A DNA stretch of 64,000 nucleotides from the NCBI GenBank assembly GCA_965208105.1, contig OZ242318.1:1440001-1504000 (forward strand), given 5' to 3'. The translations under genes were made by a program, and so were the position numbers. Numbering within the stretch: the first letter of the stretch is position 1; each line of letters begins with the position of its first letter. Below, piece by piece: positions 54,755-58,447 of the stretch. This DNA is from Candidatus Latescibacterota bacterium (lineage in GTDB: Bacteria; Latescibacterota; UBA2968; UBA8231). Below the pieces are notes generated by a model. That model had not been told where the DNA came from and searched no databases. It saw only the letters and a program-made list of their open reading frames with translations.

Positions 54755-55345
54755 TTGACACCATCGGATGCAGTTTTGATGCGGCGGGTAGCGGCGCGGG
54801 ACCAGGAGGCTTTCGCGATTCTGTTCGCTCGCCACAGGGAACGGGTGAACGAGAGTCTGCGTTGGGCGATCCGGGATCCGGACCTGGCCGAGGATCTGAC
54901 CCAGGAGGTTTTTCTCAGAATCTGGAACAGGGCGGGCCAGTGGTCGGGGCAGGGGTCGTTTCGCGGATGGCTGTTCCGGATCGCGAAAAATCTGTCGCTG
55001 AATGAACTGCGCAGCAAAAATCGCCGGCGCGAACAGCCCATGGAAACTCCTTCGCCCTGGGACGAAGAGGAGGAAGAACCGCCCGTTCCGGGATGGATGA
55101 TAGACCAGGCAGCGCTGGGGCCCGACGCGGCCCTGGAACGCGCCGAGCAGAGGCGGATTTTGCAGGACCTGATCGACGCCCTGCCGGAGGAAAAACGCGA
55201 GGTTCTTCAAATGGTATACGCAGATGAGGTGGCGCTCCAGGAGGTTGCCCGGCGGCTGGATATTCCGGAGGGAACGGTGAAGTCCCGCCTGTTCCATGCG
55301 CGCCGGCAGCTCGCGGAGGCATGGGGCCGAACCTGCGAATCATGA
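54755..55345 (+). CDS. ECF (group 4) sigma-70 factor
   Basis: AEDLTQEVFLRIW, FRGWLFRIAKN (region 2); LPEEKRE, EVARRLDIPEGTVKSRLFHARRQL (region 4). Confidence 0.93.
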   Translation: MTPSDAVLMRRVAARDQEAFAILFARHRERVNESLRWAIRDPDLAEDLTQEVFLRIWNRAGQWSGQGSFRGWLFRIAKNLSLNELRSKNRRREQPMETPSPWDEEEEEPPVPGWMIDQAALGPDAALERAEQRRILQDLIDALPEEKREVLQMVYADEVALQEVARRLDIPEGTVKSRLFHARRQLAEAWGRTCES

Positions 55346-55360
55346 GACAGGAGGAAATTG

Positions 55361-58300
55361 ATGAGTCTTTCTTTGAAGGCGCCGTGGCACAAGATTTCGT
55401 GGGATGCATTCGTGCAGAAGGGATTGCCCGACCTGTTGGCGGAGCGGATGCCGCTGGCGGGATACCGGGTGGTGTCGAAGGACGAGTACGTCTGTGAATT
55501 GCGCCTTGGGATCCAGGGAGGTCAGGAGGTCTTCTACGCGAACATTCCCCAGCCCGACGAATGGGGCCGGTTCAAGGTGGACGGCTTTTTCCGAATGGTT
55601 GTTCCGGCGCCGACGGAGGTGGATCTCGAGCGTGCCGAGATCCGCTGTGTGGGCGAGCAATTGCTCGATTATATCGCCCGGCGGCTGGAAAACATGCCGG
55701 TTATGCCGGGAGGTGCTGTCGCAACATTGATGCCGCTGGGGGATTGGATCCACGCATTTTTTACAGACGAACCCACCTCCCAGTATTTGCAGGCGACCAA
55801 CCTGCACGATATGTACGTCCACCTGCGCCGGCTGAACATGATCCCCATTTTCGGCGAGGCCACGGAGGGGGTGGAAAATTTCTATCATCCATCGCACCAC
55901 GGACGGGTCTGTCCTTACTGCACTCCGGAAGGACCGAATCTCGGGCGGATCCTGGAGGTGGCTCAGGGGGCGGCCATCCGCGAAGGCAAGCTGGTGATCG
56001 AGGACGACGCGCCTCGAAAGCGGCTGGGCATCGGTGCTTCGATGGTTCCCTTCCTGGAACACAACGACAGCAACCGGGTTCTGATGGGGGTGAATATGAT
56101 GCGCCAGTGGATTGGCGCGCCTGGACCCGACATGCCGCGCGACGAGCAGGGCGCCTGGCACGACTATCACGTCCGATACGACGGCAGGGAAGCGGAATCG
56201 GAACCCGCGATGGTGCAAACGGGGCTCGAACCGGACGACCCGCATTTCTGGACGGGATACAACCTGCTGACCGCCTTCATGGCCTGGAACGGGGACGCAC
56301 TCGAAGACGCCCTCGTGATGAGCGCATCCGCGGCCGGGCGCATGACGCTGCCCGATCCCGTCGAGCCGGGCGACAAACTGAGCAATCGACACGGCTTCAA
56401 GGGAGTGGTGTCGCGGATTGTGCGGGACGAAGAGATGCCCAGATTGTCCGACGGCACCCCGGTTGAACTCATCGTCAGCGTGTGCGGTCTGCCGTCGCGG
56501 CTGAACATCGGCCAGCTGCGGGAAGCCGTCGCCGGGCGCATTGCGAAGGCCGAGGGAAAGCCGCTTGTCGTTCCCGTGCTCGAGGCGCCGAAGGACGACG
56601 AGATTCGCGCCCGCCTGAAGGCCCGCGGGCTCGCGCAGGATGGAATGGATTCTTTGACCTTGAATGGTGAAACGCTGCCGCGCCGCACCACGGTGGGGTG
56701 GGTCTACTGGGGGCGCACCTTTCATCTGGCCGCGGACAAGATTCACGCGGCGGTAACGCCGGACCAACCCTGCCAGGAGTTGGATGAGGCTGATTTTCTG
56801 GCGCTGCAGGAGGCGGGTGCATTCGGGGTCGTGGGCGACCTGTTCAACACCTGCGCCAGGGACCGGAGCGATTCCCATACCCTGGCCGGCCGCGTCGCCT
56901 CGGGACCCGTTGCCGCTGCAGCCCCCTCCCCCCAGTTCGACGATCTTGTGAACGAGTTGTCGAAAGCCGGGGTGGCCGTCGAGCTGGGTGAACACGGGGC
57001 GCGGTTTTCGCTGAGACGGGGTGGAGAGTTGGACCTTGCCCTGCCGGTCCCGCACCCGTGGCTGCCGGGACATTCGCTGATCCACGTGGGCGGGAATGAC
57101 GTGCCCGGCGCACTGCGGCAGTCGAACAGGCGCCTGAGCGAGATGATCGCCAGTGATGCGCCGGAGGTGCTGGTGCGGCGCGCCCTTGAAACCCTGTCCG
57201 GGCGCGTTCGCTCATATTGCCGCTTGCCGCGATTGAGATTTCGGGCGCGCACCTTGTTCAGCGGGCGTTCGGTGGCCGTACCCGCCCCGGAATTGAGATA
57301 CGATCAGGTCGGTGTGCCCGAAAAGATGGCGTGGGCCTTGTTCGGACCGTTCGCCGCGCGTACCGTGGGCGGCGAAGCAGTGGACCGGAGGTCGAAAGTG
57401 GCCAGGGAAGCACTGGATGCAGCCATGGCCGATCTTTGGGCCGTGGTCCTGCGCAAACCCACGGTTTCGCCGACGGCATTCGTGGCCTGCCAGCCGCTGC
57501 GCGTCGAGGGAAACGCCATTCGCGTTTCCGTGTCGAATTGCCATATGCTGGATATGGACTTTGACGGTGACCAGGTGGCGGTCTTCGTGCCGGTTACCGA
57601 GGCCGGCCAGCGCTCGGCCGCGGATCGCCTGTCGGCAGTCGCGCACCTTGCCCGGGACCCGGGCCTGATCGCCCGCGAAAAAATTCACCCAATGCACGAC
57701 GCCATGTTCGGTCTGGCGTACACCAGCATGACGGACGAAGGTCTGGGGCAGATTGGAGCGATCGTCGGGGAAGAGATCGAGCGCGAGGGATTGTTCGTCG
57801 GCAAGAATCAGGTGATGGCCTGGCTGGCGAACGCGATGGCAGGCGATGGGGCTGAAGCCGCATTGAATATGGCGGCGCAACTGCGGGAAAGGGGATTTGA
57901 AGCCGCGCGTAAAACCGGCGCTTCGATGAGCGCGTTCATCGGCTCGTCCCTCCATTGCCCCGATCCTCCCAAGGGCGATGGCCCGGACGTCTGGCGCGAC
58001 TATCCCGACGAGGTATCGGCGATGTTGGCGCAGTTTCGCGGGTTTGACGACGACGACCTCGGGATTCCCGCCCTCCTGGCCCAGTGCGGCGCGCGGGGAA
58101 ACTGGCAGCAGATCAGGCTATACGTGGCACCTCAGGGCGTAGCCCGGAACGCCCTGGGCGGATTCACGCCGCTGAAGCACGGATTTAGAGAAGGGCTCAC
58201 CCCGGAGGAGCTTTTTGCGCGGTCGTTTGCCGCGCGCTGGGGTCTGGCCAACGCCCTGGCCGAGATGATGGCGATCCAGAGCGACCTGGAAACCCGGGGC

Positions 58301-58447
58301 GCTCCCGCCGGCTACGGGGTTCTGGCGCGGGCGCGCAGGTCGGAAACACCGGGCTTCGTATTCGCCCGCGCCGCGGAAAAGGGCGAGAGCGATCCATTGA
58401 CCGACGAGTACAGCCGGTTATTCGCGGGGTTGGGGATTGACGGTTGA
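55361..58447 (+). CDS. Single-chain, minimised RNA polymerase beta-beta' fusion protein
   Basis: Collinear beta motifs ([80 protein letters not shown]), then beta' motifs ([36 protein letters not shown]); AGGAGG RBS. Confidence 0.9.

Follow-up and report, generated by a model that had tools for sequence, protein, structure and literature searches.

Can a bacterial-type RNA polymerase be cut down to a single chain of about a thousand residues and still be directed to its promoter by a sigma factor? This question is raised by two adjacent genes within a 64,000-nucleotide stretch (hereafter the window, in whose numbering plain coordinates are given) of the genome of a Candidatus Latescibacterota bacterium (GCA_965208105.1, contig OZ242318.1, positions 1,440,001 to 1,504,000). 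The upstream gene encodes a sigma factor of the extracytoplasmic function (ECF) type, and the downstream gene a chain of 1028 amino acids (aa) in which parts of the polymerase subunit beta (RpoB) are followed, in the same reading frame, by parts of beta' (RpoC) (Table 1). The two genes are a conserved, selected and self-contained pair. The favoured reading, to which a probability of roughly 0.55 is given, is that the pair constitutes a sigma-dependent, self-activating minimal RNA polymerase, with RNA synthesis by the chain, binding of the sigma factor to it, and the identity of the enzyme that reads the promoter being inferred.

The initial annotation, made from the letters of the window, had described an open reading frame (ORF) of ~1028 aa with RpoB blocks and then RpoC blocks in a given order, and every motif that it named was found in the translation, with the DFDGD block and the end of the beta-like C-terminal block (residue 543, ~56986) lying where it had placed them. 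It had also placed an ECF sigma gene 15 bp upstream and an AGGAGG ribosome-binding site before the polymerase gene, on which the ORF coordinates, Pfam and the sequence agree. The mechanically delimited polymerase ORF (55358-58447, plus strand) has 1029 aa counted from a TTG at 55358; the true start is probably the ATG at 55361, giving 1028 aa, because family N-termini begin with MSL and the AGGAGG lies at the proper place, and it is from this ATG that the distance to the sigma stop codon is exactly 15 bp. A profile scan of the 1028-aa chain, as suggested with the initial annotation, detected RNA_pol_Rpb2_3 (7.4e-08), RNA_pol_Rpb2_6 (8.2e-40) and RNA_pol_Rpb1_2 (8.9e-14), in that order, next to the Sigma70 domains of its neighbour. 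The NCBIfam models for rpoB (TIGR02013) and rpoC (TIGR02386) gave only 179.9 bits against a curated cut-off of 801.15 and 100.3 bits against 963.5, respectively; being so far under the cut-offs, the chain is therefore a relative of beta plus beta' rather than a canonical subunit, and neither Pfam nor NCBIfam held a model specific to the miniature family. When the family profile was compared with solved chains, bacterial beta (9e-92) and bacterial beta' (6e-57) both ranked above plastid chains, while one lower-scoring beta-type chain (188 bits) is presumably archaeal. By these scores the miniature polymerase is derived from a bacterial-type RNA polymerase.

Which parts are retained and which are lost was determined from the family profile against PDB sequences, from BLAST against the subunits of the host, and from a focused pairwise alignment, all of which agree. 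From beta, the chain keeps a short N-terminal piece, the fork/Rpb2_3 segment (residues 131-207, host beta 456-535), the PFLEH..NMMRQ block (residues 210-260, host beta 602-652), the ..ED block (residues 300-322, host beta 755-777), and residues 338-543, which align to host beta 1040-1262 and thus to the end of that subunit. Lost from beta are the lobes (~310 residues) and the flap (~135 residues), canonical beta residues 137-448 and 794-928 (8i23_C numbering) being without counterpart, with the same gaps against host beta. From beta', the chain keeps the stretch from the clamp hairpin to the DFDGD barrel and the helices that follow (residues 580-754, host beta' 285-499), as well as residues 906-966, which align to host beta' 719-788 of 1386 and overlap a long helix (949-980) in the structural model. 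Lost from beta' are the first ~280 residues, the rudder (an 18-residue gap against host beta' between the clamp helices and SGRSV), and all that follows the bridge helix (~600 residues). Near switch 2, gaps of 18, 6 and 5 residues are found relative to host beta', with the RFR and SGRSV blocks retained. The chain ends 39 residues after the bridge-helix region (63 residues after the last block aligned to host beta'), and the trigger loop, the jaw and the beta' C-terminus are therefore absent. The family has in addition a conserved C-terminal tail (..PG.VFARAA..GE.DPL.D..SRLFVGL).

None of the catalytic motifs is disrupted. In the barrel motif of beta, which contains the two catalytic-site lysines, G338, D339, K340, R344, H345, G346 and K348 are invariant in 22 family sequences; in an alignment of 83 sequences G338, D339, R344 and G346 are still invariant, and K340, H345 and K348 are at least 90% conserved. 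In the DFDGD block of beta', F735, D736, G737 and D738 are invariant and D734 is at least 90% conserved in the 22 sequences, while D734, D736, G737 and D738 are each at least 90% conserved in the 83. Together with NMMRQ and EGP, both motifs are conserved across 83 members that are 35-83% identical. The clamp hairpin is predicted as two helices (584-598 and 603-620), in which N590, P602 and L605 are invariant (22 sequences).

Table 1. Positions, in window coordinates, of the sigma-polymerase pair, its parts and its neighbours.
Feature	Position	Strand	Remarks
ECF-type sigma gene	54755-55345	+	196 aa from TTG; Sigma70_r2 and Sigma70_r4_2
Sigma stop codon	55343-55345	+	
Putative ECF-type promoter, TGAAC, 14 nt, CGGTGTC	54709-54734	+	ends 20 nt before the sigma start codon
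Ribosome-binding site AGGAGG of the polymerase gene	55350-55355	+	from the sequence; 5 nt before ATG 55361
Single-chain miniature beta-beta' RNA polymerase gene	55361-58447	+	1028 aa from ATG 55361 (probable start)
Beta fork / Rpb2 domain 3 segment, including TPEGPN block	55781-55975	+	residues 142-206; Pfam; host beta 456-535
Beta hybrid-binding / double-psi barrel region to beta C-terminus	56360-56986	+	residues 335-543; Rpb2_6
Beta-barrel motif GDK..RHG.KG, two catalytic-site lysines	56369-56404	+	residues 338-349
Beta' clamp helices (coiled-coil hairpin)	57095-57217	+	residues ~580-620; pairwise alignment to host beta'
SGRSV block after shortened switch-2 stretch	57260-57274	+	alignment to host beta'
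Catalytic DFDGD of beta' double-psi barrel	57557-57571	+	residues 734-738; Rpb1_2, 8.9e-14
F-loop and bridge-helix region	58073-58327	+	residues ~906-990; NCBIfam beta'/beta'' matches at 879-966
Enolase-superfamily gene	53327-54625	-	divergent neighbour, upstream
Xylose-isomerase-like TIM-barrel gene	58507-59274	-	convergent neighbour, downstream
Rieske protein gene near window end	60662-61114	-	
Di-haem peroxidase-like DHOR protein gene	61117-62325	-	
Polyphosphate kinase 1 gene	62440-63999	+	runs off the window

Structure prediction had been proposed as a check with the initial annotation, and AlphaFold2, supplied with the 83-sequence family alignment, returned a confident model of the polymerase alone, with a mean predicted local distance difference test score (pLDDT) of 94.9, a predicted template modelling score (pTM) of 0.93 and no segment below 50. 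The domain arrangement is thereby predicted with confidence, and the high pTM suggests that the two double-psi barrels may face each other to form one active site. In a Foldseek search of the PDB with this model, bacterial and plastid RNA polymerase beta chains came first (E 2e-24, query template modelling score 0.31-0.44), and all 50 matches listed were beta chains; against a viral library only weaker matches were obtained, to ordinary viral polymerase subunits.

The same architecture was found in many other genomes. A word-indexed protein search gave 765 relatives at E ≤1e-3 among 8000 scored candidates, and of the best 120, 113 had a length of 1002-1067 aa and 7 were shorter fragments, all names given being 'hypothetical protein'. 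An exhaustive search of representatives clustered at 50% identity gave 378 proteins at E ≤1e-30; among the 150 listed, ~80 were full-length family clusters (35-57% identity), after which, at ~224 bits, came long proteins of the canonical or fused kind. Of 211 pattern matches in a scan limited to one genome for each species, 194 were confirmed as relatives. The family is represented in Latescibacterota, Poribacteria, Chloroflexota, Armatimonadota, Planctomycetota, Hydrogenedentota and Gemmatimonadota. Against five relatives, the ratio of nonsynonymous to synonymous substitution rates (dN/dS) lay at 0.11-0.16 in the polymerase and at 0.08-0.16 in the sigma factor, and contigs from other studies span both the sigma-polymerase junction and the beta/beta' junction. 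The possibility that the ORF is a chimera of the assembly or a decaying pseudogene, which had been named with the initial annotation, is countered by the many intact homologues and by dN/dS far below 1. A cluster look-up of 10 family proteins returned no cultured source and, as sole names, 'hypothetical protein'. In 72,556 plasmid and 50,697 phage records not a single place covered 80% of the query, the matches being only canonical rpoB/rpoC junctions, and in a scan of viral contigs the best 80 matches were only 20-37% identical, over residues ~178-966. PADLOC gave no match for the polymerase and only weak helix-turn-helix-type matches for the sigma factor, and PHROGs returned generic polymerase and sigma families only.

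Within the phylum the distribution is patchy: the polymerase is present in 64 of the 168 genomes (19 of the 52 of high quality) and in 16 of the 49 genera. The nearest relatives of the window polymerase (78% identical) belong to another family, members of its own family being mostly 47% identical, which suggests either transfer or old paralogy. One genome of 8.4 Mb (G091) carries two complete pairs (C1:1427414-1431177 and C1:3367761-3371734), whose polymerases are 48% and 42% identical to that of the window, and at least two polymerase subfamilies can be distinguished within the phylum. Damaged copies were also encountered (L017 (G084), L057, G185, L019 and L027): one polymerase gene is interrupted by a TAG, two sigma genes contain a stop codon, the sigma factor of L019 is shortened to 157 aa, and one sigma factor was matched as two overlapping pieces, which may be a frameshift. 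Such copies could be either sequencing errors or cases of early decay.

The upstream gene has matches to Sigma70_r2 (3.8e-15) and Sigma70_r4_2 (1.4e-14) in Pfam and exceeds the cut-off of TIGR02937 (112.7 bits against 42.9), while no specific equivalog model passes (the best, PRK12513, gives 130.9 against 206); on its domain content it is an ECF (group 4) sigma factor that consists of regions 2 and 4 only. The linker between these regions is normally variable in ECF sigma factors, whereas here it is conserved across phyla: it contains an R-rich stretch, an acidic stretch, VPxWMID and LGPD, with P112 and W114 invariant in 43 orthologues.

The linkage of the two genes is equally conserved. A sigma orthologue (44-81% identical) precedes the polymerase gene on the same strand in 78 of the 80 loci, which come from at least 7 phylum labels, and no more than 362 nt separate the two in 67 of these 78; homologues without linkage to a sigma gene, which had been named with the initial annotation as a reason to reject it, are thus not the rule in these loci. 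In one of the two exceptions the contig starts at the polymerase gene and the sigma gene is found on another small contig (7e-83); the other exception is considered below. When the ORFs of 81 loci were clustered, only the polymerase (81/81) and the sigma factor (79/81) were shared, the other large clusters being shadow ORFs over the pair or lineage-specific neighbours, and no anti-sigma gene or other shared neighbour was found among these 81 loci. A cognate anti-sigma gene beside an ECF sigma gene is common, though not universal. Of the 168 genomes in the phylum, 64 have the polymerase and 63 the sigma factor; 62 have both, 2 have the polymerase only, and 1 has the sigma factor only, located at a contig edge. 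Pairwise identities of sigma factor and polymerase are correlated (Mantel r 0.85, a value reached by 0 of 999 permutations), which is expected for linked genes anyway.

In 11 close relatives (L005-L009, L011, L014, L015, L018, L019 and L023) a further gene lies between the sigma and polymerase genes. In the six loci that were opened it encodes either an ATP-binding cassette (ABC) exporter (ABC_membrane and ABC_tran, 586-620 aa) or a protein of 381-396 aa without a Pfam family; such a gene might be carried along as a passenger of the same promoter, and may hint at the stress that is sensed via the sigma factor. In a set of Poribacteria loci (L030, L031, L033, L035-L037, L040, L041, L045, L046, L049, L058 and L069) the gap between the sigma match and the polymerase gene is 104-303 nt; in the two that were opened (L049 and L036) the sigma factor is extended at its C-terminus by a short acidic piece, and the spacer contains no conserved ORF.

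Whether the sigma factor and the small polymerase can bind each other was addressed by complex prediction with polymerase residues 1-803. The score was 0.46, against 0.11 for the best of three controls, with at least 26% of contacts in agreement between runs and a partner pLDDT of at least 62. The pair thereby passes a mark that 58 of 80 solved complexes and 2 of 110 mismatched pairs also pass; among the passes at or below 0.60 are 7 of the 80 solved complexes and both of the mismatched pairs that passed. Since sigma-polymerase complexes have already been solved, and the model may remember them, the pass may reflect mere likeness. The complex prediction, a check proposed with the initial annotation, lends weak support to binding.

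Upstream of the sigma gene, a motif of the form T-GAAC-[C/T]-T ... C-G-G-[T/C]-G-T-C is found in nearly all loci, and the length from GAAC to GTC is fixed at 25 nt. Within the 300 nt upstream, 64 of the 77 loci have TGAAC-N14-CGGYGTC in its strict form, a number that rises to 74 when a relaxed form is allowed, compared with 0 of 304 control windows (drawn from the same loci) for either form; the three loci missed by the relaxed form have a spacer that is 2 nt longer, or a changed GG. In 56 of the 64 loci the motif ends 17-36 nt before the start codon. With a weight matrix for which the window had been left out of the training sites (these score 14.0 bits at minimum and 34.1 at the median), the site at the operon was the top match in the entire 4.85-Mb genome, at 20.5 bits. 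Of 20 related genomes, 19 have the pattern at the operon; the remaining one is without the cognate sigma gene, and its locus (L084 5001-8144; G015, also listed as G163) holds an intact polymerase gene of 1047 aa and no promoter motif.

Further targets were sought with the same motif. In the genome itself, 6 occurrences of the strict motif have the right spacing, compared with 4, 0, 6 and 0 at wrong spacings. The next-best matrix match (20.2 bits) falls inside a 510-aa ORF, and a 15.4-bit match before a gene that we take to be accA-like, from its first residues, exceeds only the weakest of the training sites. The 20 related genomes contain 64 motif matches versus 22 for the reversed pattern, 19 of the 64 being the operons' own sites, and the four extra sites that were opened (G011:244168, G002:244819, G006:2460051 and G006:512212) are all antisense inside ORFs. 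In a Poribacteria genome, an antisense copy of the pattern is followed downstream by ~900 nt without an ORF of at least 100 aa (L092, ~1450-2344; G006:C1:2458949-2459843), which is probably due to chance.

Of the systems already known, the canonical bacterial core with an ECF sigma factor resembles the pair in its collinear homology blocks, catalytic motifs, clamp helices, F-loop and bridge helix, and canonical ECF systems share with it a bona fide ECF sigma factor and a promoter of the GAAC / GTC type. It differs in size, since the single chain of 1028 aa stands against ~2,650 aa in the host (ORFs of 1272 and 1386 aa), and in the parts that the miniature form has lost (beta lobes, flap, beta' N-terminus, rudder, trigger loop, jaw and C-terminus); moreover, the miniature polymerase is accessory and patchily distributed. 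The Helicobacter-type RpoBC is a full-length beta-beta' fusion. Full-length fusions (NF007172 and NF011417) likewise have beta and then beta' in one reading frame, whereas their models have 2,839-2,890 positions, so that the miniature chain has about one third of that length; it scores 168.2 bits against a cut-off of 5372 and 178.7 bits against 4632, respectively. Among metagenomic proteins, P0255 (1948 aa) and P0266 (2309 aa) have an RpoA N-terminal domain (RNA_pol_L, RNA_pol_A_bac), then beta, then beta', and are thus alpha-beta-beta' triple fusions that are shorter than the summed canonical subunits. The ESM Atlas holds further single-chain clusters with Rpb2_6 and Rpb1_2 (~1221-1787 aa, mostly 'hypothetical protein'), which suggests that metagenomes contain still other fused or reduced forms of beta-beta'.

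YonO of the Bacillus prophage SPbeta is described as a single-chain, processive DNA-dependent RNA polymerase without a trigger loop that has few residues in common with cellular enzymes (PMC5467207). By that description it resembles the miniature chain in being a single chain of ~100 kDa from the two-barrel lineage, with no trigger loop and with most accessory domains absent; it differs in being encoded by a prophage and in having no known sigma partner, whereas the miniature family is chromosomal, paired with a sigma factor, and related to cellular subunits at the level of Pfam homology (8e-40). K2ORF6p of the yeast cytoplasmic killer plasmids is a ~982-aa Rpb2::Rpb1-like fusion in which beta-like precedes beta'-like sequence, with about half of the sequence deleted and with lid and rudder said to be missing (PMC2919709, PMC6211774). 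In contrast to the miniature polymerase, it is an enzyme of eukaryotic linear plasmids with viral affinity, with no sigma factor, with its own upstream element, and with a separate small subunit that holds beta' C-terminal regions. Its authors in 2018 considered this type of fusion unknown in any other RNA polymerase (PMC6211774), and the other paper proposes switch 2 and the funnel as marks of the DNA-dependent two-barrel members (PMC2919709). The two-gene RNA polymerases of uncultured phages, seen in viral contigs (compare PMC7481178), also consist of shortened beta-like and beta'-like proteins, whereas in the two loci that were opened these are separate genes (906 and 1001 aa; 888 and 999 aa). 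A description of the present family was found nowhere in full-text literature searches, the supplementary tables of ECF classification papers being outside their scope, in agreement with the statement of the initial annotation that none was known; likewise, the main text of the ECF reclassification paper (PMC7826278), apart from its supplementary context tables, contains no Rpb, rpoB, rpoC, 'beta subunit' or Gemmatimonad.

Taken as a sigma-dependent, self-activating minimal polymerase, the pair would operate as follows. The 1028-aa chain would be a fused and trimmed catalytic core, consisting of the two barrels, the fork, a short switch 2, the clamp helices, the F-loop and the bridge helix, and by analogy with YonO it would synthesise RNA on DNA without a trigger loop. 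The ECF-type sigma factor encoded upstream would serve as its initiation factor, with region 2 docking on the retained clamp helices, and with the conserved linker and region 4 placed on the surface that replaces the deleted flap. The resulting holoenzyme would recognise TGAAC-N14-CGGYGTC, and since the only conserved copy of this promoter drives the operon itself, the unit would be self-activating, with the first round likely carried out by the host core enzyme with the same sigma factor. As no convincing second promoter copy was found among the sites opened, such a holoenzyme would have only its own operon as a known target. Binding of the sigma factor to the small enzyme is favoured by the retention of the clamp hairpin while its surroundings were deleted, by the conserved linker and by the absence of an anti-sigma gene. 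That the pair is a two-gene module derived from cellular RNA polymerase, as initially proposed, is supported by the pairing, the selection and the bacterial-type profile scores. Only tentatively can it also be regarded as a complete second transcription machine in two genes, i.e. a 115-kDa chain that would work without alpha or omega, with its own sigma factor and a private, self-driving promoter of 26 bp.

In canonical enzymes the beta flap anchors sigma region 4 and the beta' clamp helices are the docking site of region 2, and autoregulated ECF operons that are read by the host core are the norm. Against this background several observations weigh against the favoured reading. Region 2.2 of the sigma factor is of the ordinary ECF type, and the sigma factor could therefore bind the host core. 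The flap is deleted, with ~8 profile positions where canonical beta has ~135 residues, and three clamp-helix positions on which sigma-70 binding depends in E. coli (R275, E295 and A302, in our numbering) are S, A and R here in the alignment to host beta'. The second exception among the 80 loci, L084, lies in a genome without a cognate sigma factor (best sigma-like match 1e-23), and no regulon or convincing second promoter copy was found in the genome itself or, among the four extra sites that were opened, in the 20 related genomes. All of these would fit a sigma factor that is a regulator only, where host core and sigma factor switch the operon on and the small polymerase works independently of sigma, much like YonO: it might start with other sigma factors, at nicks, on single-stranded DNA or RNA templates, or in the synthesis of primers or small RNAs, or it might be a back-up enzyme for times of stress, without the modules that many inhibitors bind. 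Autoregulation by the host core would explain both the promoter and the linkage without any contact between sigma factor and polymerase, and the gene inserted between the two in 11 of the 80 loci fits a sigma-controlled stress operon. The weakness of the complex score also counts against the favoured reading, while the pass itself, weak as it is (0.46 versus 0.11), is a point for contact. A purely regulatory sigma factor is the main rival and is considered less likely than the favoured reading; points against it are that the clamp-helix hairpin was kept and conserved amid deletions, that the sigma linker is conserved across phyla, and that the sigma factor almost never occurs without the polymerase and is duplicated together with it.

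The chain might also be imagined as a non-enzymatic decoy of the core that holds the sigma factor, in other words as an anti-sigma factor, given that its gene occupies the usual place of one, that no other conserved candidate for that role lies nearby, and that the clamp helices on which sigma factors dock were kept. Such a trap would be very large at 1028 residues and would have no need for the fork, F-loop and bridge-helix blocks that are conserved over 35-83% identity, nor for metal-binding aspartates and a lysine barrel motif that are invariant or at least 90% conserved, which makes it a very improbable role. Even less credit can be given to a functionless leftover, whether an assembly chimera, a decaying copy of rpoBC, or cargo carried on a phage, a plasmid or some other mobile element. 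The patchy spread over genomes and genera, the nearest relatives in another family and the few broken copies are what such an origin would leave behind, but the recurrence of one architecture in 194 species genomes from independent assemblies, with both junctions bridged by contigs of other studies, the dN/dS of the polymerase, the lack of family members in the plasmid and phage records, the low identity of the viral-contig matches, the lack of a PADLOC hit and the ordinary metabolic flanks mean that it is already largely refuted. A sigma-dependent, self-activating minimal polymerase thus remains the reading that is preferred here.

With regard to its surroundings, the pair does not adjoin ribosomal protein genes and is flanked by chromosomal metabolic genes; as one of these is divergent and the other convergent, the unit consists of exactly two genes. 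A normal rpoBC elsewhere in the genome, the presence of which had been put forward as a check, was found: the host genome (one contig of 4.85 Mb) has a canonical rpoB (1799 bits, G000:C1:4741512-4745243), directly followed by a 1386-aa rpoC ORF, ~3.2 Mb from the miniature polymerase on the same contig. An Rfam search of 50000-64000 gave no match, and a consensus scan of 54400-58800 called neither a promoter of the sigma-70 type nor a terminator. In the divergent intergenic region, TATATAAT occurs at 54694-54701, 8 nt upstream of the ECF-type -35 element, and it is also present in the closest relative, L015; it could be a -10 element for basal expression, or one for the divergent gene, and the consensus scan of the window called no sigma-70 promoter at this place. 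Eleven contigs of a sponge metatranscriptome (X1, available as contigs only) were matched to the locus. Among the matches listed are 8 pieces that are 168-378 nt long, show 2-20 differences each and fall within 54841-58437, in both genes, which only hints at transcription, as the library may contain DNA, a strain difference is evident, and uncovered stretches are uninformative.

If the favoured reading is true, the family shows how far a bacterial RNA polymerase can shrink under selection, namely to ~40% of the usual length of beta plus beta', and it offers a natural experiment on which modules are dispensable, the retained set being the fork, the two barrels, the clamp helices, the F-loop and the bridge helix. 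It would also provide the first case of a single chain from the cellular lineage that has a sigma factor as its partner, through which promoter recognition without a flap becomes testable, and two genes with a promoter of 26 bp would make an attractive orthogonal expression system. Should the pair indeed be a second transcription machine, it would be a natural orthogonal, self-amplifying and sigma-dependent polymerase, the minimal working bacterial form, which, without lobes, flap, trigger loop and jaw, might run while the main enzyme of the cell is blocked.

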